NCBI GenBank assembly: GCA_026993485.1
Contig: JALWSU010000056.1
Location: forward strand, 1-29,618
DNA length: 29,618 nucleotides
Direction of reading: 5' to 3'
Origin: Thiotrichaceae bacterium
GTDB lineage: Bacteria > Pseudomonadota > Gammaproteobacteria > Beggiatoales > Beggiatoaceae
Shown piece after piece: positions 14,724-29,059 of the stretch (within the stretch, counting starts at the first letter, position 1; the number at the start of each line of letters is the position of its first letter). The position numbers and the translations under genes are program-made. Below the pieces are notes generated by a model. That model did not search any database and had not been told where the DNA came from. It worked only from the letters and a program-made list of their open reading frames with translations.

Positions 14724-15494
14724 TTATTTTCGTTGATGAGTTTCGCTACGCCATTTCCAAGAATACCCTTCGCCTTCAGCAAAACTTAAATCCAAAATAC
14801 CTATTTCCTTATTAGGTAAACCATTAAAGGCAATCTTTCCGTTTGTTGTTATAACTTCCATTTGTCCATCTATATCAACCACATTGATTAGAATATCAAA
14901 AATGGAGGAAGAGGAAATTAATAAAAAATTGAGTTCTTCTAATGGACTATCTGAAATGGCGATGACAATGTTCTTTTTGTTGGGTTTTAATAGATTGAAT
15001 AAGAAACTAAAATCGTTTGCTCTATATAAATTGTATCTTTTTAACAGTTTATCAATACTTTCAATATAGGTCATATTAACCAGATAAATCATGGTTTCTG
15101 AATTTAATTCAATCATTTTGACTGCCGTTTTATAATCAGTAAATTTTGGAACAATATTGCCATTGAAAATTTTCTCAGCATGGTTCTTAAAAACCGTTGT
15201 TGATAAAGCCATATTTTCCAATATTCCTTGTCTAAGACAAATAATATCTACCTTATCAAGCACTTCTGTTTCTTTTATGAGGGTTTCATCAACCATCGCT
15301 ATCACTACATTCTCAGGATTTTGTTTTTTCCACTTTTCCAGCATTGCGGGTGATGGTAAAGATTGCGAAAAATACAAAATTGAGAAAAGATTAGACTTTT
15401 GAGCCGTCATCGCTTCATCATCAGCAATAACTAAGTTGGTGAAGCAGCTGAAAAAAAGGGAACAAATCAGAATAATGATCGGAATTATTTTCAT
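14724..15494 (-). CDS. Secreted hypothetical protein
   Basis: 256 aa with an N-terminal signal peptide 'MKIIPIIILICSLFFSCFTNLVIA'. No recognised domain. It is the last gene of the minus-strand cluster. Confidence 0.5.
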   Translation of the reverse strand: MKIIPIIILICSLFFSCFTNLVIADDEAMTAQKSNLFSILYFSQSLPSPAMLEKWKKQNPENVVIAMVDETLIKETEVLDKVDIICLRQGILENMALSTTVFKNHAEKIFNGNIVPKFTDYKTAVKMIELNSETMIYLVNMTYIESIDKLLKRYNLYRANDFSFLFNLLKPNKKNIVIAISDSPLEELNFLLISSSSIFDILINVVDIDGQMEVITTNGKIAFNGLPNKEIGILDLSFAEGEGYSWKWRSETHQRK

Positions 15495-15582
15495 ATTGAT
15501 TTTCTGGAAGTTATGAGAATGAACTGGATGAATTTCCCCAAAACAACCGTTTTTTCCGTGATTTGGGGAAAATTATAATTGC

Positions 15583-17364
15583 TTACTCCACTAGAGTAAT
15601 CCTACCCTTAGAACCACAATAAGAAATGTGTTTGTTCGCTCCATAATGTTTTTCGATATAGTTAATCACAATAGGAGTGGGATTAGATTCATATTCACGA
15701 CGGTCTTCTGGCACTTTCTCCAACATCTTATATCCATCGCCACCTGTTGCTACATAACTGTTGGTCACCACTGTGTACATTTGGTCTGGATCAAGAGGCA
15801 TACCGTCAATTTCTACTTGTTGGACTCCAATATTAGGATCCAAGATAAAGCTGATACCAGATACCTGTAAAAAACCACCTTTACCAACTTGGGTTGCATT
15901 ATAATTTAGAACAGTCATTAATTCTTTACCTGTTAATGTCAGTAGATGGGTTCTGTTGGTTGGAAAAGGTAAGACAGCCATGATATCTCCTATTGTCACA
16001 GGACCTTTCACCAGAGATGCTCTGATTCCACCACTGTTATAAATGGCAACATCGGCCCGAAAATGAAATTTTAAAATATCAGTCACAAAATCACCTAAAT
16101 TGGTTTCTTGCTCTCTAATAGTGTGCTTCGTTCCTTCCAAGGAACAATCATTTTGCGCTATGATTTTGCCATATTGTCGTTTCAGTTCGCTTTTCTTCGA
16201 TTGGATATATCTGCTAATGCCAGGATCAGGTGTTACCGTTTCATCAAGTGGTATCAGTTTAGCGTCAAAGCTGCTAAGTTTGCCTTCCCACAAGGTTACT
16301 TCCAGATGTCCTAAATATTGTCCTTCGGCACCTGCCTGCACAATGCAAGTCTTATTATTTTTGTTCTTGACCATCTCACATCCTTCAATAGCAGTGTGAG
16401 AGTCTCCGCCTATGATAATGTCAATACCTTCAACTTCTTTAGCCAGCTTTTTATCATTCTCAAGCCCAAGGTGGTTGACGAATACCACTAAATCAACACC
16501 CTTCTTTTTAAAATAAGACACTATTTCTTTTGCTTTCTTAAATTCGTCTTCAACACTACTATTCTTTAAGAAAATGGGATCCACCTTGGGCATTGCGAGA
16601 GAAAAATCTTGAGAAGCTACCAAACCTGCAACGCCCATTTTAATGCCGTTGACTTTCTTAATCAGCACCTTGCCAACTGGTTTATTTCTGATTTTATAAT
16701 TGGCAGTAACACAAGGGGCTTTGATTAAGCGACGCAGGTTTAGCAAATTATCTTGTCCAAAATCAAGCTCATGATTACCCATGGTATAAAATGATAAGCC
16801 CATCCGATTGAAAACTTCAGCTTCAATAGCCCCTTTAGAGGAGTTTGACAACAAGGAGCCTTGGATAAAATCTCCAGCATTGACGAGATAAGTGGGAATG
16901 TTGTACTGCCTATTTGCAGCTCGCAGTTTTTTTACCATTGTTGCCATTCTGGCAATGCCATTCACTTCATACTTCACTTTTTTCCCGTTAACCTTTTTCT
17001 TTTTTGTCCTTGGTTCCAAAGCACCATGGAAATCGTTGAAATATAAAAAGGCGAATTTTTGAAAAGTAAAAGGTTCCACAGTACCGTTAGCACTAGGTTC
17101 TGTTGGTGAAACACTGCCCGCCATTTGCGGTGGCGCATTGGGAATTACTAGCCGTTGGCCGACTAGTAGTTTATTGGGGTTCTGAAGCTTGTTGGCTTTG
17201 GAAATCTGTGGCCATTTATTGCCGTCACCATATACCTTCTGGGCTATAGTTGACAGCCATTCACCAGGTTTCACCACATAGTAATTATCTGCCCACATTG
17301 GGCTTGTAAACAATACTGTTAGCAAAAACGCAAAAACAGTAGTTATCCAATGACGTTTTCTCAT
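15583..17364 (-). CDS. Periplasmic bifunctional metallophosphoesterase/5'-nucleotidase (UshA/CpdB-like) with an N-terminal LysM domain; copy A
   Basis: 593 aa. Signal peptide 'MRKRHWITTVFAFLLTVLFTSPMWA'. LysM 'YVVKPGEWLSTIAQKVYGDGNKWPQISKANKL...LVGQRLVIP'. Calcineurin-like motifs 'YFNDFHG', 'GNHELDFG' and 'GGDSHT'. C-terminal 5'-nucleotidase domain 'YNSGGIRASL...SGISF'. Confidence 0.8.
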   Translation of the reverse strand: MRKRHWITTVFAFLLTVLFTSPMWADNYYVVKPGEWLSTIAQKVYGDGNKWPQISKANKLQNPNKLLVGQRLVIPNAPPQMAGSVSPTEPSANGTVEPFTFQKFAFLYFNDFHGALEPRTKKKKVNGKKVKYEVNGIARMATMVKKLRAANRQYNIPTYLVNAGDFIQGSLLSNSSKGAIEAEVFNRMGLSFYTMGNHELDFGQDNLLNLRRLIKAPCVTANYKIRNKPVGKVLIKKVNGIKMGVAGLVASQDFSLAMPKVDPIFLKNSSVEDEFKKAKEIVSYFKKKGVDLVVFVNHLGLENDKKLAKEVEGIDIIIGGDSHTAIEGCEMVKNKNNKTCIVQAGAEGQYLGHLEVTLWEGKLSSFDAKLIPLDETVTPDPGISRYIQSKKSELKRQYGKIIAQNDCSLEGTKHTIREQETNLGDFVTDILKFHFRADVAIYNSGGIRASLVKGPVTIGDIMAVLPFPTNRTHLLTLTGKELMTVLNYNATQVGKGGFLQVSGISFILDPNIGVQQVEIDGMPLDPDQMYTVVTNSYVATGGDGYKMLEKVPEDRREYESNPTPIVINYIEKHYGANKHISYCGSKGRITLVE

Positions 17365-17375
17365 ATAGTTACCTT

Positions 17376-19979
17376 TTATCGTATAGGAATCAAATCTATC
17401 ATGTTAATCAAATCCAATTTTCCAGTATAGTCTTTAGCAGAGCAGGTTTGATCATTACGTTCTATATATTTCACACGATTGTCAGAGATAAAATAGATCT
17501 GTTCTTCATTCCTGGAAAATACTGGAAACTTGGCCTTAAATCCACACGGTATTTCTACAATCTCTCCGTTTCGGAAATCAGGCTGGAGCAATAATGTTGA
17601 TTCATTAAGCGTGCGACTGAACGCGAAAAGTAGAGATTGACTGTTCATCGCAGGTGTAAGAAATTCAATATGTTGAGCATAGTTTGTCAACCATTTAAAT
17701 TGCTGAGCACTTGGACGATCAGGTTCATATAACACCACTTCCATGTGATTTGAAGTTACTTCTCTCCCTAAGAAGACAATATTCTCACTATCATTTAAGA
17801 AAGTGGGGCTTTGAATTCTGGCTATTTCGTGTGGCAGTGAGATTGGAATTATTTTCGGTTGAAAATCGTCGTTTAACTCGTATAAATTCATAATTTCCAG
17901 TGATTGAGAATCATAATCAATGGGAATATAAACTATTTTTTTACCATCTGGTGAAATAGAAGGCATTTTTCCAGGATCTTTGCAATCATTGATAATCGCT
18001 CTCGTTTCTAAGTTTACTAGGCAGATTTTCGCGTTTTTACCCAAGCTTTGTTGGAAAACTAGTAAATGTTTATCCTTTGAAATACTTGGATAAAGTTGAT
18101 AGTCTTCATGCTCTTTTAACAAGAGTTCGTTTTCGCCAGATGATTTCACCAAGAACAGTCTTTTCCAAACTTGATTACCAGACCCGCTCCGAGCGCAAAC
18201 GATAAAATCAAATTCACCAATTGGTTGCTCAGGCGGCACAGGCGGCGGCACAGGCGGCGTCACAGGCGGCACAGGTGTCACAGGTGGTGGTAGGAAAAAT
18301 AATACGACAAATGTGACAACTATCATTCCAACCACTGCCCAAAGGTATTTGTTTTCTTTCAAATCTACAAAATTATTGAAATCTAAGAAAATGTTCACCA
18401 GCCCTTTTTTAAGGGTAGCCACAATACCTAGCTTTATGAGGTATTTTTTTTCAATTTCCTTAGCTTTGTCTTTTGATATTCTTCTGTTTAAAACATAAGT
18501 ACTTCGTAAGCGTTTTACCTCATTTGTTTCTACACCATGAGGAGATTGCTTGCTTAACTCCTGACAACTATCTTTGTATTCATTTACCCAATCTATTTTC
18601 CTGATCTTATTTTCTATCTCCTCCGCTTGTTCGTGCTCTAAATGCAATTCTGTCAAGGCTTTATCTAACTCTATTCTTGCTGCTAGTGTAATAACGCCAT
18701 ACATTTCTACTTGTTTTGCATAAAATTTTTTCCTTTCTTCTATTGACAGCAGTGGCCGATCTATTGGTTCTTTAGTCCAAGAAGGTGGCCATATAGAACC
18801 ACCTCCCATAGGTTCAATATACTCTCCTGAAGGGAATTTATAAGCAATCCAATGTCTTAGTATATCAATCCTGAAACGGTAATTATTATTTTTTGTTTCT
18901 AATAGACGTGTGAATTTAATAAAGCCTGCGAGTGTTTTAAACAAATCGGGTTTAGAAACATTAAATCTTTGATTTTTTATTGTTTTGAAAATTTTGGAGG
19001 AGCTAACATACTTATTAGAGTCTTGAATGGTATTAGCCAAGGCGGCTAAAATTTCCTGCCCATACTTTGGCGCAGTATTTGGATTAGAAAAACTTTTCCA
19101 TGTTTCTTGAATATGCCCAGCGGGATTACGCATAATAAAATCAATAACAGCCTTCAAATCCTCTGCAACCACATAATTGCGTTTTAGTTTATCATTGACA
19201 TGATTAACTAAGCTATGACAAATATATTGCGTATAATAGGGCTGCCCTCCTGATAATCGGTAAATTTTCTCTAGGACTTTATCATCATAACTTAAATTTT
19301 TTCCTATGGGGTTTTGAATCAAATCCAGTGTATCAGGCATTGATAATTCTAGGATTTGGTACATTTGAGTAACAGGTTGCAATATCTTTTGGACATTAAT
19401 ATCTTCAAAGTCACGAGAACTGGTCATAACAAAGTGAACTGGCAAATTGAGGATTTCTGTTATCCAAAATAAGGCATTCGCCGATAAACTAGATTTGAAA
19501 AGCGGCTCAATAGAATCAAATTCATCACATAAAATAATGAGCTTTCTAGGTTGAATCTCGTTGAGACAATTTTGCACTAATTGTTCTAAACGAACTGTCC
19601 ACGAACTATTCTCTTTTTTGTCCATAAATTCAGCTTCAAATTGCTGAAATTTAGAATTTTCCAAGATAGCTTTTCCCACTTCAAAAGGAAAATCTTCATC
19701 TTGTTTAATCCTTGGAACCATCTTATGAAAATCACATAAAACTGCTTCACCAGCTTGATGAAATCTACCTTTCCGAATTTGCCATAAAATCGAGCTTTTT
19801 CCGGAGCGACGACCACCAATCAATAAAATCACTTTAGGACCATCAGTCATAATCCAATTTTGGATTATTCTTAAATCCTCTTTACGACCAAAAAACATTT
19901 CTTTGGATTTGATCGCATTGCCTACAATATAAGGATTTTGGATTGGTTTAAAGTCCTTGTATGTTGTTAGTTTGTTCAT
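17376..19979 (-). CDS. Membrane-anchored P-loop NTPase (AAA_16/STAND-like) fused through one transmembrane helix and a Pro-rich linker to a PD40/TolB-like beta-propeller; copy A, fused form
   Basis: 867 aa. 'FFGRKEDL...KVILLIGGRRSGKSSIL' is Walker A and 'LIILCDEFD' is Walker B. The transmembrane segment is 'YLWAVVGMIVVTFVVLFFL', followed by 'PPPVTPVPPVTPPVPPPVPP'. The C-terminal ~300 aa carry PD40-like repeats ('KMPSISPDGKKIVYI', 'YPSISKDKHLLVF', 'FPVFSRNEEQIYFIS'). It ends 11 nt before the nucleotidase gene. Confidence 0.7.
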   Translation of the reverse strand: MNKLTTYKDFKPIQNPYIVGNAIKSKEMFFGRKEDLRIIQNWIMTDGPKVILLIGGRRSGKSSILWQIRKGRFHQAGEAVLCDFHKMVPRIKQDEDFPFEVGKAILENSKFQQFEAEFMDKKENSSWTVRLEQLVQNCLNEIQPRKLIILCDEFDSIEPLFKSSLSANALFWITEILNLPVHFVMTSSRDFEDINVQKILQPVTQMYQILELSMPDTLDLIQNPIGKNLSYDDKVLEKIYRLSGGQPYYTQYICHSLVNHVNDKLKRNYVVAEDLKAVIDFIMRNPAGHIQETWKSFSNPNTAPKYGQEILAALANTIQDSNKYVSSSKIFKTIKNQRFNVSKPDLFKTLAGFIKFTRLLETKNNNYRFRIDILRHWIAYKFPSGEYIEPMGGGSIWPPSWTKEPIDRPLLSIEERKKFYAKQVEMYGVITLAARIELDKALTELHLEHEQAEEIENKIRKIDWVNEYKDSCQELSKQSPHGVETNEVKRLRSTYVLNRRISKDKAKEIEKKYLIKLGIVATLKKGLVNIFLDFNNFVDLKENKYLWAVVGMIVVTFVVLFFLPPPVTPVPPVTPPVPPPVPPEQPIGEFDFIVCARSGSGNQVWKRLFLVKSSGENELLLKEHEDYQLYPSISKDKHLLVFQQSLGKNAKICLVNLETRAIINDCKDPGKMPSISPDGKKIVYIPIDYDSQSLEIMNLYELNDDFQPKIIPISLPHEIARIQSPTFLNDSENIVFLGREVTSNHMEVVLYEPDRPSAQQFKWLTNYAQHIEFLTPAMNSQSLLFAFSRTLNESTLLLQPDFRNGEIVEIPCGFKAKFPVFSRNEEQIYFISDNRVKYIERNDQTCSAKDYTGKLDLINMIDLIPIR

Positions 19980-20017
19980 ATTTTTATTTTTACATGAATT
20001 TAGTAAAATTAATTGAA

Positions 20018-20050
20018 AAACGAACTAAATTTTAAATTTTTAGTTCGTTT
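20018..20050 (-). terminator. Hairpin 'aaacgaactaaa-...-tttagttcgttt' between copy B and copy A
   Basis: An 11-bp inverted repeat 22 nt after the 20072 stop. On the minus strand it is followed by ttcaattaatttt. Confidence 0.45.
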
Positions 20051-20071
20051 ATCCACGTTAATAAGCTACAC

Positions 20072-21661
20072 TTACTTCACTAAAATAATCCGATTCTTAG
20101 ACGCACAATAAGATATGTGTTTACTCGCTCCATAATGTTTTTCGATGTAGTTAATCACAATAGGAGTGGGATTGGATTCATATTCACGACGGTCTTCTGG
20201 CACTTTATCCAACATCTTATAACCATCGCCACCCGTTGCTACATAACTGTTGGTAACCACTGTGTATATTTGCTCTGGATTAAGAGGCATACCGTCAATT
20301 TTCACTTGTTGGACTCCAATATTAGGCTCCAAGATAAAGCTGATACCAGATACCTGTAAAAAACCACCTTTACCAACTTGGGTTGCATTATAATTTAGAA
20401 CAGTCATTAATTCTTTACCTGTTAATTTCAGTAAATGGGTTCTGTTGGTTGGAAAAGGTAAGGCAGCCATGATATCTCCTATTGTCACAGGACCTTTCGC
20501 CAGAGACGCTCTGATACCACCACTATTATAAATGGCAACATCCACCCGAAAGTGATCCTTTAAAATATCAGTCACAAAATCACCTAAATTGGTTTCTTGC
20601 TCTCTAATAGTGTGCTTTCTTCCTTCCAAGCGACAATCATTTTGCGCTATGATTCTACCATATTGTCGCTCCATTTCGTTTTTCTTCGATTGGATGTATC
20701 TGCTAATGCCAGGATCAGGTGTTACCGTTTCATCAAGTGGTATCAGTTCAGCGTGAAAGCTGTTAGGTTTACCATTCTGCAAGCTTACTTCCAAATGTCC
20801 TAAATATTGTCCTTCAGCACCTGCCTGCACAATGCAAGTTTGATTATTTGGGTTCTTGACCATCTCACAGCCTTCAATAGCTGTATGAGAATCTCCGCCT
20901 ATGATAATGTCAATACCTTCAACTGCTTTAGCCAGCTTTTTATCATTCTCAAGCCCAAGGTGGTTGACGAACACCACTAAATCAACACCCTTCTTTTTAA
21001 AATCAGACACTATTTCTCTCGCTTTCTTAAATTCGTCTTCAACACTACCATTCTTTAAGAATGTTGGATCCACCTTGGGTATTTCGAGAGAAAAATCTTG
21101 AGCCGCTACCAAACCTGCAACGCCCATCTTAATGCCGTTGACTGTTTTAATCAGCACTTTGCCAACTGGTTGATTTCGGATTTTATAATTGGCAGTAACA
21201 CAAGAGGCTTTGATTAAGTGGAGCAGGTTTAGCAAATTATCAGGACCAAAATCAAGCTCATGATTACCCATGGTATAAAATGATAAGCCCATCCGATTGA
21301 AAACTTCAGCTTCAATAGCCCCTTTAGATAAGTTTGACAACAAGGAACCTTGGATAAAATCTCCAGCATTGACGAGATAAGTGGGAATATTGTGGTTCTC
21401 ATTAGCTGCCCTTATCTGTTTGACCATAGCTGCCATTCTGGCAACGCCATACACTTCATACTTCAGTTTTTTCCCATTAACCTTTTTCTTTTTTGTCCTT
21501 GGTTCCAAAGCACCATGTAAATCGTTAAAATATAAAAAGGCGAATTTTTGAAGTGAATCACCAGGTTTCACCACATCGTCAGTCTGTGCCCATACTGGGC
21601 TTGTAAACAGTACTGTTAGCAAAAACGCAAAAACAGTAGTCATAAAATGACGTTTTCTCAT
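20072..21661 (-). CDS. Periplasmic metallophosphoesterase/5'-nucleotidase, copy B (LysM domain deleted)
   Basis: 529 aa. It matches copy A along its whole length, with long stretches of near-identical DNA. It has the same signal peptide, but 'VVKPGDSLQK|FAFLYFNDLHG' shows an in-frame loss of ~64 aa covering the LysM domain. Confidence 0.8.
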   Translation of the reverse strand: MRKRHFMTTVFAFLLTVLFTSPVWAQTDDVVKPGDSLQKFAFLYFNDLHGALEPRTKKKKVNGKKLKYEVYGVARMAAMVKQIRAANENHNIPTYLVNAGDFIQGSLLSNLSKGAIEAEVFNRMGLSFYTMGNHELDFGPDNLLNLLHLIKASCVTANYKIRNQPVGKVLIKTVNGIKMGVAGLVAAQDFSLEIPKVDPTFLKNGSVEDEFKKAREIVSDFKKKGVDLVVFVNHLGLENDKKLAKAVEGIDIIIGGDSHTAIEGCEMVKNPNNQTCIVQAGAEGQYLGHLEVSLQNGKPNSFHAELIPLDETVTPDPGISRYIQSKKNEMERQYGRIIAQNDCRLEGRKHTIREQETNLGDFVTDILKDHFRVDVAIYNSGGIRASLAKGPVTIGDIMAALPFPTNRTHLLKLTGKELMTVLNYNATQVGKGGFLQVSGISFILEPNIGVQQVKIDGMPLNPEQIYTVVTNSYVATGGDGYKMLDKVPEDRREYESNPTPIVINYIEKHYGASKHISYCASKNRIILVK

Positions 21662-21672
21662 ATAGTTACCTC

Positions 21673-22899
21673 TTATTGTATAGGAATTAAATCTATCATG
21701 TTAATCAAATCCAATTTGCCAGTATAGTCTTTAGCAGAGCAGGTTTTATCACTACGTTCTATATATTTCACACGATTGTCAGAGATAAAATAAATCTGTT
21801 TTTCATTCATGGAAAATACTGGAAACTTGGCCTTAAATCCACACGGTATTTCTACAATCTCTCCGTTTCGAAAATCAGGCTGGAGCAATAAGATTGATTC
21901 CTTATGCGTGTGACTTAACTCGAAAAGTAGAGAACGACTGTTCGTCGCAGGTGTAAGAAATTCAATATGTTGAGCATAGTTTGTCAACAATTTAAATTGC
22001 TTATCACTTGGACGATCAGGTTCATATAACACCACTTCCATGTAATTTGAAGTTACTTCTCTCCCTAAGAAGACAATATTCTCACTGTCATTTAAGAAAG
22101 TGGGCCTTTTAATTTTGGCTATTTCGTTGTGTGACAATGAGATTGGAATTCTCTTTTGCTTAAAATCGTTTAAATTCATAATCTCCATAGAGTTAGAATC
22201 TTCAATTGGCACATAAACTATCTTTTTGCCATCAGGAGAAATGGAAGGCATCTTGCCAGTGTGCATACAATTATTGGTAATAGCTCTAGTCTTTAAGTTG
22301 ACGATGCATATTTTGGCACTTTTAGCTAATCCTCTTTGGAAAACCAGCCATTTTTTATCCCTTGAAATACTGGGATGTAGTTGATAATTTTTAATATTTT
22401 TTAAAAATAGTTCTTTTTCTCCTGATGATTTTACCAAGAAAAGTCTTTTCCAATCTTTCTCAGATGGACTCCGAGCGCAAATGATAAAATCAAATTCACC
22501 CATTTTGCTTAGTGTTTTGTCGGGTAGCCCTTCTTGCCATTTTTGCCACTCTTCTTGTAATAATGCGACAAATATAATGACAACTATTATTACTACCACT
22601 ATCCAAAGATATTGGTTTTCTTTAAAATTTAAGAAAACATCCAACTGCCTTTTTAAGGTAGTAAGAATACTTGGTTTTGAGAGATAGTATCTTTCAATTT
22701 CCTTAGCTTTATGTTTTGAGATTTTTTCAGTCAAAACATAAGTACTTTGTAGGTGTTTTAGCTCAAATTTTGGCACGCCATTAGGATATTGCTTGCTTAA
22801 ATTTTGACAACTATCTTTGTATTCTTCTATTTCCTTTTCTCGTTCATTTTTCATACTATAATTAGCTACACTAACGATAGAATTTTCTCTTGAAATCAC
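21673..22899 (-). CDS. Transmembrane PD40/TolB-like beta-propeller protein, copy B; corresponds to the C-terminal half of the 867-aa copy A protein
   Basis: 408-aa ORF. It matches copy A from the linker '...EYKDSCQNLSKQ' through the transmembrane helix 'YLWIVVVIIVVIIFVALL' and the whole propeller. The real start is probably at 'MKNEREKEIEE' near 22854. It overlaps the upstream NTPase ORF by 29 nt in another frame. Confidence 0.7.
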   Translation of the reverse strand: MISRENSIVSVANYSMKNEREKEIEEYKDSCQNLSKQYPNGVPKFELKHLQSTYVLTEKISKHKAKEIERYYLSKPSILTTLKRQLDVFLNFKENQYLWIVVVIIVVIIFVALLQEEWQKWQEGLPDKTLSKMGEFDFIICARSPSEKDWKRLFLVKSSGEKELFLKNIKNYQLHPSISRDKKWLVFQRGLAKSAKICIVNLKTRAITNNCMHTGKMPSISPDGKKIVYVPIEDSNSMEIMNLNDFKQKRIPISLSHNEIAKIKRPTFLNDSENIVFLGREVTSNYMEVVLYEPDRPSDKQFKLLTNYAQHIEFLTPATNSRSLLFELSHTHKESILLLQPDFRNGEIVEIPCGFKAKFPVFSMNEKQIYFISDNRVKYIERSDKTCSAKDYTGKLDLINMIDLIPIQ

Positions 22900-23944
22900 T
22901 CAAGAAGTCTTTTATTATACTAAAGATATTCGGACTAGGTGGTGGTATTCCTATCCGTTCACGAAAAAAACGTTCCATTTGCCCTGCCGAAATTTCACGT
23001 TTATCTCTTGTAACCCAACCACGATCAACGAGATAATTATCCACTATCAAGTTTTTCTTCTTACGGCGACTTAGAATACTTACGATACTTTCTAGCTGTT
23101 GTGTTGTTAATGAAGAATAAATTTCTTCATAATAAGGAAGACACGCTTGATAAGCCTCATCAATTACCTGCTGAAATGATGATTCGCCAGTTTTTTCATA
23201 GTGTGATACCCATACCTTGCCCGCTTCTTGGAGCGGATAGGGGCTGTAGCCAAATTGTCCAATTAATTCAAAAATATCCTTTTCATTATTTTGCAAAGCT
23301 TCTGGCAATCTTTCAGAAATTAGACGGGTTACTTCAGTCAGGCTAAGTGGAAATAAGGCATAATAATCAAAAATGTTAAAAAAGGGAGAACCAGCTAACT
23401 CCACCGTCATTGCTAAATCCAATAAAGGCATTGGTGAAGTCACAATACACCCAACTGGACTATGCATGTAAAGCCATGATCTTAAACTTTCAAAAAAAGC
23501 AAGCTTATATTTTGGGTTAGCCACTATCAGATTGAAATTATCAATAATTAGAATTAACCTGCGGTTATTTTTTTCCAACCAATCTAAAATTTTGTCGTTA
23601 TCTGAAAAATCTTTTAAATTAGGTATGGCTAATACTTCTTCTATTTTGCTATAAATGACTTTGAAAAAAGCAGTTTCATCAGTTAATTGATGTTTAGCTG
23701 TATCAAAATATAGAAAAATATATTGATTTGCTTTGTCACCCAAGTAATGTTTTACAACGCTAGGTTCCTGAAGATATTTAACCAAAGACGTTTTGCCTTC
23801 CTTACTAAAACCATAAATGGCAAAACTTTGAACATCATCAGTTCCCAATCTTCCATAAGCATGTTGTAGCACAGTTCCTCTACCAACATGCTCTTGTGGA
23901 TTAAGACAGGGCCTTTCTGGATGAAAAGAGAATTTTTGTGTCAT
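22871..23944 (-). CDS. P-loop NTPase (AAA_16/STAND-like), copy B; a separate gene whose sequence diverges from the copy A NTPase
   Basis: 357 aa. 'HVGRG...FAIYGFSKEGKTSLVKYL' is Walker A and 'RLILIIDNFN' is Walker B. Its architecture matches the N-terminal domain of the 867-aa protein but the sequences are dissimilar. It starts 1 nt after the upstream 265-aa gene. Confidence 0.65.
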   Translation of the reverse strand: MTQKFSFHPERPCLNPQEHVGRGTVLQHAYGRLGTDDVQSFAIYGFSKEGKTSLVKYLQEPSVVKHYLGDKANQYIFLYFDTAKHQLTDETAFFKVIYSKIEEVLAIPNLKDFSDNDKILDWLEKNNRRLILIIDNFNLIVANPKYKLAFFESLRSWLYMHSPVGCIVTSPMPLLDLAMTVELAGSPFFNIFDYYALFPLSLTEVTRLISERLPEALQNNEKDIFELIGQFGYSPYPLQEAGKVWVSHYEKTGESSFQQVIDEAYQACLPYYEEIYSSLTTQQLESIVSILSRRKKKNLIVDNYLVDRGWVTRDKREISAGQMERFFRERIGIPPPSPNIFSIIKDFLSDFKRKFYR

Positions 23945-23945
23945 G

Positions 23946-24743
23946 TCATTTGCTCACTATCATTGCAATTAAATCTTTCCAATCAGGCTGCTGTTGTTGC
24001 GCGATGATATTGAGTTTTTGAATTTTCTCATCATCAAGTCCCAAGGTGATACCAAATTGGTATAAAATATCATAGTCCTTTTTGCTCAGCACTTTATCTT
24101 TCATGCCCAAACGATTGGCGGTGGTATATAACCATGATTGGTAAAAAATAAAGGAAAAGGCTTTCAAAGTATTAAAATCATCATCAGCTAAATAGCTTTG
24201 AAAAAATGCCGTCCATTCCCACGGCATTTTGCCGGTTTTTTCTAAATCGCGCCAATTGGCGAAATCACCAAAATCAAAAAGTTCAAAGAAAAACTGAATA
24301 ATCCCTTCCTTATTGTACTGTACCGTTGGTAAAGGCGGTAACCACCCACAAAATCCACTCGGATGAAGATAAAGATGTGACATTTTCCATGAACTATTTA
24401 AGCCTTTTTCTTGTGCATAAATCTCAAGCGATAGCGTTTGTTTGACAATCAATAGCTTTTCAATATTGGAAAAAGATAAAATAATGCTTTTGCTAGGTTT
24501 AAATTGACTCAGTTTTTTAGATAAAATGGTGGCTTCTAAAACTGGCTTGCTATCCAATTCTTGGCTATTTATTTGAATTTCATCAATATCTAAAATAGCT
24601 GGATGTAGCAAAGTTTGCCATTGCTGTAAGAAAGATTCATATTGTTTAATAACATTTTGTGCATCTTCCAAATTGGGTATTGGAATGGTGGCGACTAATT
24701 TATTATCTGTTTGAATCCAATTCGTTTGAGTTTCAATATTCAT
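23946..24743 (-). CDS. Hypothetical protein, first gene of the NTPase-propeller-nucleotidase operon
   Basis: 265-aa ORF with no signal peptide and no recognised motif. It is separated from the downstream NTPase gene by a 1-nt intergenic gap, and tandem hairpins lie upstream. Confidence 0.5.
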   Translation of the reverse strand: MNIETQTNWIQTDNKLVATIPIPNLEDAQNVIKQYESFLQQWQTLLHPAILDIDEIQINSQELDSKPVLEATILSKKLSQFKPSKSIILSFSNIEKLLIVKQTLSLEIYAQEKGLNSSWKMSHLYLHPSGFCGWLPPLPTVQYNKEGIIQFFFELFDFGDFANWRDLEKTGKMPWEWTAFFQSYLADDDFNTLKAFSFIFYQSWLYTTANRLGMKDKVLSKKDYDILYQFGITLGLDDEKIQKLNIIAQQQQPDWKDLIAMIVSK

Positions 24744-24763
24744 TTTATAGCCTTAAAATCAGA

Positions 24764-24833
24764 CCTCCGAGGAGAACAATACCTCGGAGGTCGTTGTATC
24801 TGTAACCTCCGAGGTATTGCTTTCCTCGGAGGT
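24764..24833. repeat. Two tandem hairpins built on the cctccgagg stem ('cctccgagg-agaacaata-cctcggagg' and 'acctccgagg-tattgcttt-cctcggaggt') separating the secreted-protein genes from the operon
   Basis: Perfect inverted repeats. The second is followed by ttttt on the plus strand. The stem sequence is the same as in the 9061-9096 hairpin. Confidence 0.6.
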
Positions 24834-24870
24834 TTTTCTTAATAGCAAGCTTCAGCGTAGAAACCAGAAG

Positions 24871-25311
24871 TTACTTATAACAAACCAAGACATTTGAATA
24901 ACCAGAACCGCTATACATTAACACCCCAATATAGTAAGTGCCTGACCATCTAGGAGAAACCGCCACTATTGGCGTTGCATCGCTTTTTTGATCACGGTCA
25001 ATTTCGTTATAATTTTCGTCCAGCATAATGATATCCAAGTCACGAACACTAGAATCGCCTGCTCCAATAATAAAATAGCTATTACCGCTGTACAGAGTAG
25101 TTCTGACTATATAGTAATCACCTTGACTCAAGTATTTGCCACTGGCATTATCACGGCAACCACCAGCCCCCCTATTTTCTATATAGCGTTTCACTTGACG
25201 CAATTTTCGCATTGACTGTGCATCCGACGCATAACTGATTGACGGAATAACCAATGCCATAAAGGCTGATACTAAAATAACCAATACTGATGTTTTACCA
25301 ATTTTCATCAT
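24871..25311 (-). CDS. Small secreted hypothetical protein (~147 aa)
   Basis: The ORF track gives 24871-25395. The likely start is the internal Met(s) at 25311/25308 ('MMKIGKTSVLVILVSAFMALVIPSISYA' is a signal peptide), which removes the overlap with the upstream gene. The protein is Gly/Ser/Tyr-rich and has no recognised domain. Confidence 0.5.
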   Translation of the reverse strand: MMKIGKTSVLVILVSAFMALVIPSISYASDAQSMRKLRQVKRYIENRGAGGCRDNASGKYLSQGDYYIVRTTLYSGNSYFIIGAGDSSVRDLDIIMLDENYNEIDRDQKSDATPIVAVSPRWSGTYYIGVLMYSGSGYSNVLVCYK

Positions 25312-25330: not shown

Positions 25331-26146
25331 TTATTTAAATGAGAGTCTGAGTGCGCGAGCAATCTTCTTAACATCACCAAGGGTGATTTCACCACGTTTC
25401 TTGTTGACTATTGGTTTGATCTTTTTTAGCCCACGAACAAAGTTTTTAACAGTGCGATTGTTCCGAAATTCAGGAGTCGCTTTTTTTGTCAAGTGGTTGA
25501 TAAAATAATTAACCAGTTCTCCCCATCTGAACATGTCTAGTTGTTGACGGCTTGGTTGGGCATAACTTCCTACAGTACGGGCACCTAAGTACAAGGCTTT
25601 GAAATAAGCGGCGGCGAGTACAAGTACACCAGAATCACGTATTGACGGGTTTTTGTCCTTTTCTATCTGTGGAACAATTTCGTTGATTAAAGCATCCATT
25701 TTGTCACGCAAGGCTTTGCCTTTAAGCTTGCCAGTTTCCAGTTGATCTTTTAGCGTTTGTATTTCTGCTTTGATATTGGCAGGTAGTTCTAAAGAAACAA
25801 GCGCATTATAGGCTTGTTGTATAATTGCTTTTGAGGGCGGTGTGTCATCGTTACCACTATCCAAGACGACAAAGGCAATATCGGACAAGGTTTTGCCTAC
25901 TTCAAAAGAACGTTGTGGCAAACTCATTGATTGATAAGCTTTTGATTGGACAGTTATTAACTTGCCCCATTTTCCAGTAATGCCAGCATTTTTGGCATTT
26001 TTGTGGATTTCGTTGATTGAAGGCAAGTAGAGCTTTGCCTGTGTTTTTTGAGGCGTGAATGTGAATGTGGGTTTGCCATCACCTGCCCATGCTAAATTGC
26101 AAAATGACATCATGATAAATAATGTCAACAGTTTTTTTATAGTCAT
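25331..26146 (-). CDS. Secreted hypothetical protein
   Basis: 271 aa with signal peptide 'MTIKKLLTLFIMMSFCNLAWA'. No recognised domain; the C-terminus is basic. Confidence 0.5.
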   Translation of the reverse strand: MTIKKLLTLFIMMSFCNLAWAGDGKPTFTFTPQKTQAKLYLPSINEIHKNAKNAGITGKWGKLITVQSKAYQSMSLPQRSFEVGKTLSDIAFVVLDSGNDDTPPSKAIIQQAYNALVSLELPANIKAEIQTLKDQLETGKLKGKALRDKMDALINEIVPQIEKDKNPSIRDSGVLVLAAAYFKALYLGARTVGSYAQPSRQQLDMFRWGELVNYFINHLTKKATPEFRNNRTVKNFVRGLKKIKPIVNKKRGEITLGDVKKIARALRLSFK

Positions 26147-26202: not shown

Positions 26203-27636
26203 TTACCGATTACGCCATACAAAAGTAAGCCAAGCTAAGCTAAATGTAACAAGCGTTATCAGTAAAAGAATGAGCCATGTTGTTTGACTATGCTGTACTC
26301 TAAAAAATTTTAAGCGAGAGTCAATATTCATGGCATGAGCCAGTATAATTTGTTCTACTTCATTTAAATTTGTGCCAGTTCCGCGTATTACTTGTTCGAC
26401 TGCGTTTGAATAAACGCCACCTTCACCCCAAAAATTTTTGCCTGCTTCTTCTAAAAATTTAACTGAGGGTATGTGTTCTAGCAATAGTGTTGGTACAGTA
26501 AGCTTGCCATCAAGTTGTTCGGGATTTTCTCGACTTTGTTCTAGTTTGTCATAATATTCCTTTAAGACTTCAATATATTTAGATTCAGTTGCTGATACTT
26601 CTGGTGGTAGATCCTCGCTATCGCTGGCATAAAATAATGCTTCATACCAATAGTTGGCAATTTCCGGATGTTTATTGATTATTTCAGGTGGCCCTTTTTT
26701 ATCCCATTGTTTTCTTAATTCAGTAAGATAAGTACTGGGATCAAGTGATTTTAGACTTAAAGCTCCTGTGCCTATAAAGCTGCCACTCCTAAATTGCGTG
26801 CGTTCATCGTGTTCAATTTGATAGCGTGGCATTGAGACGTTTAAGTCTTGCTCAAATAAAAGGGCAGCGGCTTCAAAGCCCCAACGACTTACCATAAAAT
26901 CTGCGATAGTATGAACCATTGGATTCATACCAATAATCGGCTTAATAATGCTGCCACCTAATAGGATTTGAATAATCAATAAAAATGGTAGAACTGCATT
27001 CGCGGCTGAGCGCGTTTTAAAAAATGTTGATACAAACATCGCAACAGCGATAGAGGCAATAGCTGTTAGCCAGAGTAACAGAAAAAATTTAAAAAACAAG
27101 CTTGGCATTAAGATTGAGAAAAAACTGATAGATTCTGACTTAGCAATTATCAGCCCAGTTTCATACGGGTTTATCCAAGCTGGTAAAACGATAAAGATTA
27201 TGTGAAAAGTGAGAGTAAATAAAAAAACTTGTCCAAAAGCTATAATGGATAACGCTATAAATATAGAAAGAATAAAATCGAAACTGCTTAAAAAGCTCAG
27301 TCGCTCCTGTTGATATAAAATCATTGAACTTGGAATTTCGACTATGGCTTTAGACGTTCCAAACCAGACGGCTGTGAGTACGACTAGGAAAACAATGATA
27401 CTTACAGTATCTGAGGTTAGGTAATTTCGTAGTGGTTGAAAAATCTCACCGGCACCAAATGTTACAATAGTTTGAAAAACTAAGAAAAATGCAATTGCCA
27501 GAACTGGTGCTTGCAAAAAGGTGATACTTAAATCCGTCTTGTCTCTATAGAAGCTGAGTAAACGACGCTGAACTAATTTAAGAATCCGCTTTGAACGAGA
27601 ACTGGGGATGGCTGCAAAGTCGCTACTTGTTGTCAC
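26203..27636 (-). CDS. ABC transporter permease (ABC-2 type) with a large hydrophilic C-terminal region
   Basis: 477 aa with about six hydrophobic helices in the first ~250 residues. It overlaps the upstream ABC ATPase gene by 14 nt, suggesting translational coupling. Confidence 0.65.
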   Translation of the reverse strand: MTTSSDFAAIPSSRSKRILKLVQRRLLSFYRDKTDLSITFLQAPVLAIAFFLVFQTIVTFGAGEIFQPLRNYLTSDTVSIIVFLVVLTAVWFGTSKAIVEIPSSMILYQQERLSFLSSFDFILSIFIALSIIAFGQVFLFTLTFHIIFIVLPAWINPYETGLIIAKSESISFFSILMPSLFFKFFLLLWLTAIASIAVAMFVSTFFKTRSAANAVLPFLLIIQILLGGSIIKPIIGMNPMVHTIADFMVSRWGFEAAALLFEQDLNVSMPRYQIEHDERTQFRSGSFIGTGALSLKSLDPSTYLTELRKQWDKKGPPEIINKHPEIANYWYEALFYASDSEDLPPEVSATESKYIEVLKEYYDKLEQSRENPEQLDGKLTVPTLLLEHIPSVKFLEEAGKNFWGEGGVYSNAVEQVIRGTGTNLNEVEQIILAHAMNIDSRLKFFRVQHSQTTWLILLLITLVTFSLAWLTFVWRNR

Positions 27637-29059
27637 AGTTTTTTTCCTCAGAGAGTTTTGCCTCTAACTTTTTATAATAAGGAGACATTTTGTATATTTG
27701 GTGCCATTTTTCAGGTAGTGTTGTACGTTTTCCAGTTTTTGGATCTTTTTTCTCTAGGACATCAAATATGATTTTTGGCGATTTATAGGGAGAATGTTCT
27801 CCATGTGAAAAATATTTAATAGCCTCATCAGCAGGACCGTAGTATGCGATAAATCCACCGACATCAAGCACTAATAAGGTATCCATTAAGTCAAAGGCTT
27901 CAATATCAGGCGAGTGAATCGTTAATATAACCCCTTTGCCATTATCTGCAATCTGCCGTAGGTGTTTCAGAATGTTATCTGTATCTAAAGAGGATAGTCC
28001 CGAACAAACTTCGTCCGCCAGTAGAAAGGTTGGCTCTAACATTAATTCTAAAGCGAGATTAACCCTTTTTCTTTGCCCGCCAGAAATTGCCGAACAATAA
28101 TTATTTTGTTGTTTTTCTAAATTCATGGCTTTTAACAAGTCATCTACTTTTTGTTTTATAGCTTCCGGTGGCCAATCTGATGGGAGACGTAAGTTGGCGG
28201 CATAATGTAAATTTTCTTTAACAGTTAATTCGGGTATGACAACATCGTCTTGGGGTACAAAACCAATTTCTTTTAAAATTTCTGGATTTTTTTGAGTATT
28301 TTGACCTGACAAACAGATATGACCAGATCTAAGAGGAATGATTGCACGAATAGCTTTGAGTAAAGTTGATTTTCCTGCACCGCTAGGGCCAATAATACCC
28401 ATAAATTCACCAGATGGAATGCTTAATGAGCAATCGTGAATTAAATCTTGATGTTTGTTTTTGGGATGGGCGACATAAATATTTCTAAGCGTTAGGCAAT
28501 CATGAGTGGCTATTTGACTGGTTAATTTACCATTTGCTTTTAATTCTAGTTGATAAGAGCCTATTCTAATAATATTACCGTTTTGTAGTTTTTTGGTTTT
28601 TTTATCCGCTAAAAAACATATTTCCCATTGATTATTTTGACATTTTATTTCGAGAGCGTGCCAAGCTACGCGGGGAGAATAGAGTTGAATATCACAAATA
28701 TCTGATGCACCAACTAAGTTGGTTTTACCGTTTTGAAGCTGGTAATCAGTTTTGGATTGAGCCGAATCATTTTTGTTCTCTGAAGAAAAGCCGTTATTTT
28801 TGAGCAATTCTCCGAGCGTAAAAAAGACACCAGCGAGTTTTAGGGGCGTGAATTTATCAATACGCGCCATGACAACACCGCGTTGACGATGATCGACAGT
28901 CAGATTTTCCCGATTATCGCTTTTATTATGAATAAGATATTCAACAGCCGATACTGGGGTAACGGTTAGAAGAATTTTATCCGCCGAAGTGTCATCGGGT
29001 AATGGATAGGTACTGTTTGGCGTATTTCCTATTATAAGTTTTTTTTGGGTTAAATACAT
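27623..29059 (-). CDS. FHA-domain-containing ABC transporter ATP-binding protein
   Basis: 478 aa. The N-terminal FHA-like stretch is 'LVGASDICDIQLYSPRVAWHALEI...NGNIIRIGSYQLEL'. Walker A 'GPSGAGKSTLL', signature 'SGGQRKR', Walker B 'LLADE'. Confidence 0.8.
   Translation of the reverse strand: MYLTQKKLIIGNTPNSTYPLPDDTSADKILLTVTPVSAVEYLIHNKSDNRENLTVDHRQRGVVMARIDKFTPLKLAGVFFTLGELLKNNGFSSENKNDSAQSKTDYQLQNGKTNLVGASDICDIQLYSPRVAWHALEIKCQNNQWEICFLADKKTKKLQNGNIIRIGSYQLELKANGKLTSQIATHDCLTLRNIYVAHPKNKHQDLIHDCSLSIPSGEFMGIIGPSGAGKSTLLKAIRAIIPLRSGHICLSGQNTQKNPEILKEIGFVPQDDVVIPELTVKENLHYAANLRLPSDWPPEAIKQKVDDLLKAMNLEKQQNNYCSAISGGQRKRVNLALELMLEPTFLLADEVCSGLSSLDTDNILKHLRQIADNGKGVILTIHSPDIEAFDLMDTLLVLDVGGFIAYYGPADEAIKYFSHGEHSPYKSPKIIFDVLEKKDPKTGKRTTLPEKWHQIYKMSPYYKKLEAKLSEEKNCDNK

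Follow-up and report, generated by a model that had tools for sequence, protein, structure and literature searches.

Organisation of the gene cluster

The DNA analysed here, referred to below as the window, is a stretch of 29,618 nucleotides (nt) from a Thiotrichaceae bacterium (assembly GCA_026993485.1, contig JALWSU010000056.1, positions 1–29,618, forward strand). It carries a gene for an 867-amino-acid (aa) P-loop nucleoside triphosphatase (NTPase), joined through one transmembrane (TM) helix to a predicted periplasmic PD40/TolB-like propeller domain, and directly downstream a gene for a secreted 5'-nucleotidase. Comparison with related loci supports the view that these two genes form a real functional pair, which may be the sensing arm of a larger membrane system. 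A preliminary description of the locus had placed them in a three-gene unit present in two tandem copies. The five open reading frames (ORFs) on which it was built were all confirmed on the minus strand. The unit itself proved to be larger, the module being part of a cluster of 11 co-directional genes (14724–29059, minus strand); among them are genes for a probable FHA-ABC exporter and for a protein with a pseudokinase fold. From 29059 down to 14724 the order is ABC ATPase, ABC-2 permease, sec271, sec144, 265-aa protein and 357-aa nSTAND2 NTPase (genes 1–6), then 408-aa truncated sensor, 529-aa nucleotidase, 867-aa sensor, 593-aa LysM-nucleotidase and sec256 (genes 7–11). Intergenic spacing ranges from a 14-nt overlap up to 127 nt. 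The features are as follows.

29136..29163, minus strand: promoter-like site TTGACA-16-TATCAT (11/12), a consensus match only, about 75 nt upstream of the cluster's first gene; such sites are not more numerous in the region than expected from shuffled sequence
27623..29059, minus strand: ABC ATPase, ABCG/White-like, with two probable divergent N-terminal FHA-like modules (about aa 10–85 and 108–180), assigned from Pfam, NCBIfam and orthologues
26203..27636, minus strand: ABC-2 type permease with 6 predicted TM segments, overlapping the ATPase gene by 14 nt
25331..26146, minus strand: sec271, a signal-peptide protein, apparently system-specific, with no Pfam, NCBIfam or PDB match
24871..25311, minus strand: sec144, a small signal-peptide protein, possibly a beta-sandwich; likely start ATG at 25311, the listed ORF reaching 25395
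24762..24834, no strand: two neighbouring copies of a hairpin resembling repetitive extragenic palindromes (REP), CCTCCGAGG-N9-CCTCGGAGG, between sec144 and the pseudokinase-like gene
23946..24743, minus strand: pseudokinase-fold protein, 265 aa, 1 nt upstream of the nSTAND2 gene
22871..23944, minus strand: type-B partner NTPase (nSTAND2), 357 aa, soluble; Pfam nSTAND2 1.6e-13
21673..22854, minus strand: truncated sensor paralogue without NTPase, 408-aa ORF; probable start ATG 22854, the listed ORF starting at GTG 22899
20072..21661, minus strand: 5'-nucleotidase paralogue B, 529 aa, signal peptide, LysM deleted, motifs intact
20015..20053, no strand: hairpin between nucleotidase B and the 867-aa gene
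18795..19979, minus strand: cytoplasmic module of the type-A sensor NTPase, aa 1–395 of the 867-aa protein, ORC/Cdc6-like AAA+ core and winged helix
18228..18752, minus strand: juxtamembrane helical domain (aa 410–535), TM helix (aa 545–563) and Pro-rich linker (aa 564–584) of the 867-aa protein
17376..18227, minus strand: predicted periplasmic PD40/TolB-like domain, aa 585–867 of the 867-aa protein, assigned from sequence profiles
15583..17364, minus strand: LysM-5'-nucleotidase A, 593 aa, with signal peptide, LysM, Metallophos and 5_nucleotid_C, 11 nt downstream of the sensor gene
15528..15576, no strand: hairpin after nucleotidase A
14724..15494, minus strand: sec256, a signal-peptide protein without family assignment, possibly an accessory part

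The hairpins at 15528–15576, 20015–20053 and 24762–24834 bracket the unit, and the 265-aa gene stands 1 nt ahead of the NTPase gene, both as previously noted. Hidden Markov models (HMMs) built from the cluster proteins were searched against 107 related loci from genomes and metagenomes; individual loci are cited below by number (L001 and so on).

The 867-aa sensor protein

The N-terminus of the 867-aa protein matched Pfam ATPase_2 (34.4 bits, cutoff 33.2) and nSTAND2 (24.7 bits, cutoff 24), both marginally, and contains the motifs FFGR, GGRRSGKSS (Walker A) and LIILCDEFD (Walker B). Canonical Walker A and B motifs are retained by the sensor NTPases, and two arginines (R32 and R375) are invariant in the sensor family, as is R155 in the partner family. 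In the AlphaFold model, aa 1–395 form an AAA+ core and winged helix with a predicted local distance difference test (pLDDT) score >90, and the juxtamembrane region (aa 410–535) is confidently helical. A single hydrophobic helix (aa 545–563) follows, then a Pro-rich linker. The P-loop NTPase, single TM helix and Pro-rich linker recognised earlier in this protein are thereby confirmed.

The last 283 aa are beta-rich and show PD40/TolB repeats by sequence. Pfam PD40 scored 24.5 bits (2.5e-5; cutoff 20.9) in the paralogous 408-aa protein and 16.4 bits, below the cutoff, in the 867-aa protein itself. The NCBIfam TolB model matched the outside domain at 2.8e-9, with 36 bits against a 343-bit cutoff. 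When a profile of six homologues was compared with PDB, TolB was found with a whole-sequence E of 2.3e-6, and three stretches matched blades at 8–11 bits each, below threshold. These profiles support the assignment of aa 585–867 as a PD40/TolB-like periplasmic domain. The propeller proposed in the preliminary description is thus upheld by the sequence profiles and not by the AlphaFold model, which is of low confidence in this region (pLDDT 27–75).

The two nucleotidases

Both nucleotidases contain a signal peptide, Metallophos (2.4e-8 for copy A and 6.2e-9 for copy B) and 5_nucleotid_C (1.2e-38 and 3.9e-38) according to Pfam; LysM is carried by copy A (593 aa) and not by copy B (529 aa). Their best PDB match was the Thermus 5'-nucleotidase 2Z1A (4e-49), kin to CD73, NadN and UshA. 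The scores for NCBIfam equivalogs were far below the cutoffs (UshA 166 against 600, CpdB 54 against 486, SoxB 133 against 550; NadN also below). Hence, of the UshA/CpdB-like phosphoesterase proposed earlier, the Metallophos/5_nucleotid_C composition and the UshA type were retained and CpdB was not, the closest enzymes being of the Thermus/CD73/UshA type. The sulfur-oxidation protein SoxB was considered and ruled out, given the score above and a PDB SoxB match of 2.9e-13 as against 4e-49 for the 5'-nucleotidase.

The DxH, GD, GNHE and H motifs are complete in both window enzymes, and throughout the nucleotidase clade the last catalytic motif is GGDSH in place of GGHSH (His to Asp). Metal-ligand motifs are degenerate in the nucleotidase domains that are fused to NTPases and in the L010 copy (GIHE, GKHE, H to Y); they are intact in the free LysM enzymes. 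The loss of these ligands suggests that catalysis is dispensable in some variants.

In both copies the gap between sensor and nucleotidase genes is 11 nt, with an SD (Shine-Dalgarno)-like GG (AAGG or GAGG). The two gaps, earlier described as identical, are so in length and differ in one base (AAGGTAACTAT versus GAGGTAACTAT). Because of this short gap and its SD-like GG, the sensor gene and the downstream nucleotidase gene are likely to be translationally coupled.

Conservation of the pairing and of the sensor family

In 5/5 lineages from two phyla, a propeller sensor was followed by a nucleotidase (window twice, L001, the 948-aa protein of L002, L014 from Desulfonema, and L032/L034). The spacing was 11–14 nt in the window, L001 and L002, and stop and start codons overlapped in L014 and L032. 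Co-occurrence of NTPase-TM-propeller and nucleotidase genes across genomes, which the preliminary description had named as a check, was seen in these neighbourhoods. Except for window copy B, every nucleotidase in this position carries LysM. A second pairing was observed for sensors with an FGE-sulfatase domain: in 6/7 cases (the 885-aa protein of L002, L004, L005, L007, L026 and L107; the exception is L032) they were followed by a solute-binding protein of the SBP_bac_3 family, LysM-bearing wherever the gene is complete. In some relatives SBP_bac_3, Peripla_BP_6 or nucleotidase domains are fused directly to the NTPase. Since solute-binding proteins and nucleotidases, both two-lobed hinge proteins, interchange at this position and also occur fused to the NTPase, the nucleotidase appears to occupy a ligand-binding, or receptor, slot, and a role as co-receptor fits better than that of a purely metabolic enzyme.

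The gene set without the 408-aa + 529-aa pair was found in Beggiatoaceae/Thiomargarita-type contigs (L004/L008, L005, L026, L028 and L107; partly in L001 and L013), and gene order is conserved in all of these. It was also found, rearranged, in Desulfobacterota (L010, L011 and L014, the last from Desulfonema) and in a complete Aminicenantes genome (L106). Fusions join several of these parts. In L011 and L014 the pseudokinase-fold protein forms the N-terminal part of the nSTAND2 polypeptide, in L010 and L106 the ABC ATPase and the permease are one protein, and NTPase, cadherin and nucleotidase are combined in L002 (1203-aa paralogue) and L029. The named hosts are all filamentous sediment bacteria, comprising giant sulfur bacteria and a small number of others.

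Among 1.84 billion representatives, the sensor-type NTPase was found in 191 clusters at E<=1e-30 and in 1,536 at E<=1e-10. The family is rare but widespread, and confined to uncultured or hard-to-grow organisms; no plasmid homologue was found by tblastn against PLSDB. Eighteen loci have 2.5 kb or more of flanking sequence on either side; a 357-type nSTAND2 partner was present in 14 of them, in 10 within 1.5 kb. Of 56 sensor-type proteins whose extension reaches 150 aa or more, 47 contain a TM segment there, in the variable part and away from the NTPase module. Two domain orders occur, NTPase-TM-domain and signal peptide-domain-TM-NTPase, and the variable domain is placed outside in both. An NTPase inside and a propeller outside, as previously proposed for the 867-aa protein, would fit this family pattern. 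The outside domains include PEGA, FG-GAP, sortilin, Reg_prop, FGE-sulfatase/C-type lectin, SBP_bac_3, Peripla_BP_6, cadherin and PD40. Pfam nSTAND2 matched 40/41 partner NTPases, and the output domains found on these 41 proteins were Pkinase (7), Trans_reg_C (4), Guanylate_cyc (3), DUF4062 (3) and TIR_2 (2).

Individual loci showed further variation. One contig of about 14 kb (L002/L003/L025) contains three side-by-side paralogous sensor NTPases, each with its own downstream partner; their outside domains are cadherin + nucleotidase, SBP_bac_3 + propeller, and FGE-sulfatase, and the sensor cassette appears expanded in this one genome. A 498-aa sensor NTPase with a TM helix and little outside domain is followed in L015 (730–3504, Desulfonema) by a separate 420-aa FGE-sulfatase protein, as if the outside domain had become detached as a gene of its own. 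Three Spirochaetes loci (L016, L018 and L019) have two partner NTPase genes about 1 kb downstream of the sensor, one with Walker B DDFH, the other with DEFE and, at its N-terminus, an adenylate/guanylate cyclase domain.

The partner NTPase and the pseudokinase-fold protein

The 357-aa protein matched Pfam nSTAND2 with 51 bits (cutoff 24; 1.6e-13) and is only 22% identical to the N-terminus of the 867-aa protein. The window's nSTAND2/ATPase_2 NTPases have an AAA+/STAND core that contains both Walker motifs, and a winged helix at its C-terminal end. Walker A of the 357-aa protein is intact (GFSKEGKTS), and Walker B reads DN, not DE, throughout the partner subfamily of the window, from which we infer that hydrolysis is probably impaired. 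In L001, L004, L005, L013, L026, L028 and L107, orthologues 60–81% identical are encoded by a gene of their own, immediately ahead of the only sensor gene, which is full-length. The two NTPase genes are directly adjacent in L001, L004, L005, L026 and L107; in the window they are separated by the 408+529 insert.

In its predicted structure the 265-aa protein has a bilobal kinase fold, with EssB, YukC and TraF among the best structural matches. It is soluble, with no TM segment. No invariant Asp was found in 18 homologues at the position of either the catalytic HRD Asp or the DFG Asp, and the catalytic-loop region reads SSWKMSHLYLH. The protein is called pseudokinase-like because these residues are not conserved.

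The ABC exporter and the secreted proteins

The window ABC ATPase matched Pfam ABC_tran at 9.4e-31 and pigment-precursor/PDR-type ABC models of NCBIfam. Significant FHA matches were obtained with orthologous ATPases (3.6e-16 in two stretches for L106; 1.7e-12 for L010), and the window protein aligns colinearly with those of L010 and L011. It is therefore read as a probable component of a 2xFHA-ABCG exporter in which the FHA modules have diverged. In L005 (1919–4894) the ABC ATPase gene is split into 419-aa and 87-aa parts by an ORF for an RRXRR/HNH endonuclease, which resembles a mobile-element insertion.

A PDB profile search with sec271 gave no match. A word-index search of a 5.8-billion-protein database returned only 17 protein clusters for sec271, 8 of which appear, by indirect match, to be linked to another component of the cluster; the link was confirmed by reading the locus in L004, L106 and L107. 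This distribution suggests that sec271 is essentially private to the system. The small protein sec144 is conserved beside sec271 in every full cluster and had only weak PDB profile matches, to beta-sandwiches of the lectin/PPC type (E 0.018–0.9). A sec256 gene follows the LysM-nucleotidase gene in the window and in L002/L003 (63% identity).

Partial duplication within the window

DNA alignment revealed two repeat blocks. Positions 15582–17063 of copy A correspond to 20071–21552 of copy B at 92% nt identity, and 17261–18581 to 21558–22824 at 80%. The repeat extends from aa 466 to aa 867 of the 867-aa protein (the C-terminal 402 aa) and on through the nucleotidase stop codon; 197 LysM-coding nt are missing from copy B, in which only the first residues, VVKPGD, are kept. 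The 408-aa protein consists of about 80 aa of juxtamembrane helices, the TM helix and the PD40-like domain, the NTPase being absent, and is 68% identical in aa to residues 465–867 of the 867-aa protein. Nucleotidases A and B share 86% aa identity. Of the tandem duplication of the whole module that had been proposed, repetition of the C-terminal sensor part and of the nucleotidase was thus verified. The NTPase portion is not repeated. Copy B as a split copy of copy A was ruled out by the 22% identity between the 357-aa protein and the 867-aa N-terminus, and also by the 357-aa orthologues that stand as a separate gene in loci without the duplication. The 357-aa protein is a distinct, conserved partner NTPase, and the second three-part architecture had to be abandoned. 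Copy B is best described, on the evidence of these alignments, as a truncated sensor cassette placed between the partner NTPase and the full-length sensor, without an NTPase of its own.

Mis-assembly was ruled out, since the 529-867-593 order is present in an independent ENA assembly too and purifying selection acts on both copies. Identity along the repeat is a mosaic of 68–81% over the first ~740 nt and 87–96% afterwards, with synonymous divergence dropping from 0.92 to 0.18. The duplication would accordingly be old, with partial homogenisation by gene conversion at a later time.

The ratio of non-synonymous to synonymous substitution rates (dN/dS) is 0.32–0.36 for both duplicated genes, indicating that both copies are still constrained. 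That the 408-aa and 529-aa genes are decaying, functionless leftovers of the tandem duplication is a doubtful explanation, even if an entire NTPase module and LysM have been lost, the 408-aa start has no clear SD sequence ahead of it, and the pair is missing from the closest relative, L001 (71% identity), where genes for 266, 358 and 856 aa are followed by the nucleotidase gene. The pair is absent likewise from L004, L005, L013, L026, L028 and L107. Against decay, neither ORF is interrupted along its 1.2 or 1.6 kb, in a genome rich in AT, and the dN/dS is not close to 1. Signal peptide and catalytic motifs are kept, as is the 11-nt gap with its SD sequence; the 867-aa gene likewise lacks an obvious SD sequence. 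Selection on copy B suggests that it is functional, and the loss of NTPase and LysM argues for an altered role. The pair would serve as another co-receptor pair, one without NTPase, or else be a cassette in reserve.

Comparison with described systems

The nearest described kind is the nSTAND2 two-gene system, itself only predicted (Kaur, Burroughs, Iyer & Aravind, eLife 2021, PMC8195603, Fig. 6C). The window shares with it two neighbouring genes for STAND-type NTPases, each with a winged helix, a variable C-terminal region on the second gene, and an N-terminal domain of unknown nature on the first ('??+STAND'), whose place is taken here by the pseudokinase-fold protein, fused or encoded 1 nt upstream. 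The pair may also be asymmetric in both: in the described system one of the two NTPases has eroded NTP-binding motifs, and the window partner has an intact Walker A and a DN Walker B beside a canonical sensor. A conserved arginine finger in both proteins, which would form a hetero-oligomer, is a further trait of the described system. In the window, Pfam nSTAND2 fits the first gene of the pair best, the sensor fitting ATPase_2 better, and Walker A is eroded in neither. The systems described are cytoplasmic, with GT4 or HEPN effectors and tetratricopeptide repeats, and come from Pseudomonas, Enterobacteriaceae and rhizobia. In the window, by contrast, the C-terminal region follows a TM helix, is predicted to be periplasmic and is PD40-like (FGE, solute-binding protein or cadherin in relatives), there is no GT4 or HEPN, and a LysM co-partner, a probable FHA-ABC exporter, a pseudokinase and secreted proteins are added. 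In the supplementary files of PMC8195603, LysM and nucleotidase do not occur, and the nSTAND2 operon table examined holds cytoplasmic architectures only. The EACC1-caspase 'membrane-associated two-gene system' of Kaur et al. 2020 was considered as well and is a different system. The TM helix, periplasmic sensors, LysM co-partner, pseudokinase and FHA-ABC exporter would thus be new with respect to the predicted nSTAND2 systems.

The pseudokinase-fold protein and the ABC exporter recall YukC/EssB and YukB/EssC of the type VII secretion system (T7SSb, PMC9600267) and PknF and Rv1747 (PMC3138270), where a kinase-fold protein is likewise encoded with a transport ATPase having two N-terminal FHA domains; Rv1747 is also a 2xFHA ABC exporter. 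Unlike EssB/YukC, the 265-aa protein is soluble and without TM segment, and the ATPase is of the ABCG exporter type, not FtsK-like. The cluster has no active kinase, and the window FHA modules are highly divergent.

The nucleotidases resemble Thermus 2Z1A, CD73, NadN and UshA in having Metallophos, 5_nucleotid_C, a Sec signal peptide and the DxH/GD/GNHE/H motifs. They differ from periplasmic and ecto-5'-nucleotidases by the N-terminal LysM (copy A), by GGDSH and by obligate linkage, sometimes fusion, to a membrane NTPase. TolB of the Tol-Pal system, which is the best PDB and NCBIfam sequence match of the outside domain, likewise has PD40 repeats in a periplasmic domain beside peptidoglycan-associated partners. 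Unlike the situation in TolB, the match covers two or three blades with low scores, the TolB N-terminal domain is missing, the domain is TM-anchored to an NTPase and there is no tie to a tol-pal operon.

In LuxP-LuxQ, TorT-TorS and chemoreceptors with maltose-binding protein, a two-lobed periplasmic hinge protein reports its ligand occupancy to the outside domain of a membrane transducer, single-pass or dimeric, encoded by a neighbouring gene. The present loci are similar in that SBP_bac_3 and Peripla_BP_6 proteins hold the same position in sister loci. They differ in the transducer, a P-loop NTPase and not a histidine kinase or methyl-accepting chemotaxis protein, and in the window partner, a LysM-tethered and active-looking 5'-nucleotidase; the interaction is putative.

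A sensor/NTPase switch/output logic is also shared with STAND/NLR-like immune sensors (Avs, bNACHT and the STAND-CLec targets of diversity-generating retroelements (DGRs), PMC10907252), as are FGE/CLec domains (in sister loci) and a bias to multicellular hosts; some STAND-CLec sensors have been noted as periplasmic (PMC10907252). Each of those is one polypeptide chain, in most cases located in the cytoplasm, to which a nuclease, protease or TIR effector is fused, whereas in the window sensor and output are split across two NTPases, the sensor is extracytoplasmic and there is no DGR. A literature search, of incomplete coverage, gave no description of a transmembrane or periplasmic STAND sensor or of this gene combination, and in the literature searched the module matches no described system, as had been stated before.

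Proposed function and alternative explanations

Our preferred reading, to which we give a probability of about 0.5, is that the module serves as the sensing arm, outside the cytoplasm, of a multi-gene signalling system in the membrane that has two STAND-type (nSTAND2/ATPase_2) NTPases at its heart and would work from outside to inside, with the nucleotidase as co-sensor and gating of the exporter as output. The structural and comparative statements are much firmer than those on signalling direction or output. Large rotations between domains upon substrate binding are known for 5'-nucleotidases (UshA). The LysM nucleotidase would sit on peptidoglycan and act as a hinge-type co-receptor, like the periplasmic binding proteins for LuxQ or TorS, and the propeller would read its state, nucleotide-bound or free. 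The TM and juxtamembrane helices would then carry the signal to the sensor NTPase, whereupon this enzyme would shift to another nucleotide state and assemble differently with the nSTAND2 partner, whose hydrolysis is presumably impaired. The pseudokinase adaptor of the partner could contact the tandem FHA domains of the ABC ATPase and thereby gate export of some substrate. There are direct precedents for this last step: in YukC/EssB the pseudokinase attaches to both FHA domains of the YukB/EssC ATPase and needs no phosphorylation to do so (PMC9600267), and the 2xFHA ABC exporter Rv1747 is regulated by PknF (PMC3138270). In distant relatives the same sensor/partner pair would drive kinase, cyclase, TIR or OmpR-type DNA-binding outputs. 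The nucleotidase might also remove the signal, because its motifs indicate that the enzyme is catalytically intact here.

Several observations weigh against this proposal. The outside-in direction is read only from the kinds of domains present, and the whole system is a computational prediction, known from genes and models alone. The window nucleotidases have intact catalytic motifs, which is as compatible with an enzymatic role as with a sensory one. For aa 590–867 the AlphaFold model has low confidence (pLDDT 27–75), the alignment for the C-terminal domain being shallow. The counts of sensor and downstream partner varying together (5/5 and 6/7) are small and not phylogenetically independent, and L010 and L106 have no clear 357-type partner. 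The FHA modules of the window ATPase match weakly (Yop-YscD_cpl 3e-3; the top four PDB profile matches are all FHA, at E 0.15–1.3). The pseudokinase assignment of the 265-aa protein relies on its modelled fold; hhalign of its family against the real kinases fused to partner NTPases was colinear and weak (probability 6%, E 0.006). Finally, sec271, sec144 and sec256 had no Pfam or NCBIfam match even at E<=1 and belong to no assignable family.

STAND/NLR-type NTPases are regarded as intracellular pattern receptors, and transmembrane signalling is dominated by histidine kinases, chemoreceptors and Ser/Thr kinases. An NTPase that reads a periplasmic domain across the membrane would extend the STAND switch to transmembrane signalling. 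The interchange of nucleotidase and solute-binding protein in one slot suggests that a hydrolase was recruited as a receptor, and extracellular nucleotides may accordingly serve multicellular bacteria as a cue. The cluster also joins paired nSTAND2 NTPases, pseudokinase-tandem-FHA coupling and ABCG exporters, each studied separately until now, and yields interaction predictions for all of them.

A wider generalisation is tentative. Here the loci would represent an unrecognised class of transmembrane transducers in which an outside ligand-binding domain is connected through a single TM helix to a STAND/ORC-like NTPase in place of a histidine kinase, and this NTPase would signal by assembling, depending on its nucleotide, with a soluble output NTPase (kinase, cyclase, TIR, DNA-binding, or a pseudokinase gating an FHA-ABC exporter). 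The tethered 5'-nucleotidase would be a receptor for extracellular nucleotides and the 408+529 pair a swappable or modulating cassette. If this were true, giant filamentous bacteria would have a sensor for a 'damaged neighbour' or lysis signal.

An anti-phage or counter-invader defence is an unlikely alternative to the sensing-arm proposal. In such a system the propeller and the nucleotidase would detect phage adsorption, DNA ejection or released nucleotides, and the NTPase pair would trigger a protective or suicidal response, perhaps via the exporter or the secreted proteins. The nSTAND2 NTPases were defined within predicted counter-invader two-gene systems (PMC8195603), TIR_2 or DUF4062 is present on some distant partner NTPases, and FGE/CLec domains on STAND proteins, some of them periplasmic, have been proposed as antigen sensors in multicellular bacteria (PMC10907252), a pattern matched by the filamentous multicellular hosts found here. 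The NTPases also gave weak PADLOC/NCBIfam matches (PDC-S27 3.6e-5, PDC-S60 6.8e-5, DS8_antiphage 5.5e-7). These matches do not amount to a PADLOC-DB 2.0 system, as only marginal hits of the NTPases to the candidate singletons PDC-S27, S01 and S60 were obtained, and the nucleotidases, the propeller, the 265-aa protein, sec271 and sec144 had no match in that database. Plasmid homologues (PLSDB) and an obvious toxic effector encoded in the cluster are lacking, many outside domains bind small molecules (SBP_bac_3, Peripla_BP_6), and several partner outputs are those of ordinary signalling (OmpR-type DNA-binding, cyclase, kinase). Defence-type neighbours had been taken to fit an accessory or conflict role. 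An XhoI-type restriction-modification pair and a SocA/Panacea pair do lie near the cluster, but conflict-type genes surround most of the Beggiatoaceae loci examined, so that the neighbourhood does not discriminate.

It is less likely again that the cluster is an envelope-export machine, with the FHA-ABCG exporter, sec271 and sec144 as a core that exports lipid, glycan or pigment, the NTPases, pseudokinase, propeller and LysM proteins as peptidoglycan-anchored assembly or regulatory factors, and the nucleotidase as a metabolic enzyme that, for example, hydrolyses a nucleotide-linked by-product. The ABC genes, sec271, sec144, the pseudokinase and the type-A NTPase are indeed kept as a block in all three phyla, the ATPase is of an exporter type (ABCG/White, ABC-2), peptidoglycan-binding or -associated modules (LysM, SH3_3, PEGA, TolB-like) recur in the periplasmic parts, both window nucleotidases have intact catalytic motifs, and the named hosts are filamentous sediment bacteria with elaborate envelopes. 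Such a machine leaves unexplained why propeller/nucleotidase and lectin/solute-binding protein are swapped while the remainder stays constant, why fused nucleotidase domains with degenerate metal ligands are retained, and why distant NTPase pairs occur without ABC exporter and with kinase, cyclase or DNA-binding outputs.

Control from inside to outside, in which the cytoplasmic NTPase pair would sense an intracellular cue and switch the periplasmic nucleotidase, solute-binding protein or lectin as an effector via the TM protein, is very improbable: the variable C-terminal domains of Aravind-type conflict systems are usually read as effectors (PMC8195603 and PMC7159879), and the nucleotidase is an enzyme with intact motifs, but the outside domains of the family are mostly non-catalytic binding modules, catalytic or DNA-binding outputs sit on the cytoplasmic partner, and the fused nucleotidase domains have lost their metal ligands.

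Repeats and genes around the cluster

The REP-like palindrome CCTCCGAGG-N9-CCTCGGAGG has three intergenic copies in the window, one at 9066–9092 and a back-to-back pair within 24764–24832 inside the cluster; six half-sites were counted against 0.07 expected. A 30-nt inverted repeat (97% complementary, 22-nt spacer) lies at 29280–29361, just upstream of the promoter-like site of the cluster. An Rfam scan of the window gave a single match, a tRNA at 4950–5024 (minus strand), and nothing within the cluster.

The XhoI-type restriction-modification pair (12864–14581, plus strand) adjoins the cluster on the opposite strand and consists of an N6_N4_Mtase methylase and a PF04555 XhoI endonuclease (9.5e-82). 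At 383–1265 (minus strand) a 159-aa SocA/Panacea-domain antitoxin overlaps a 137-aa ORF without family match, and the two are likely a toxin-antitoxin pair. An 89-aa ORF at 5647–5916 (minus strand) matches only the first 78 of the 201 positions of PF09820 (predicted AAA-ATPase) and is probably a gene fragment. The 885-aa protein encoded at 6211–8868 (plus strand) has repeated CarboxypepD_reg, SdrD_B and prealbumin-like domains and is probably a surface protein; CarboxypepD_reg domains are present too in the outside parts of distant relatives of the sensor NTPase.

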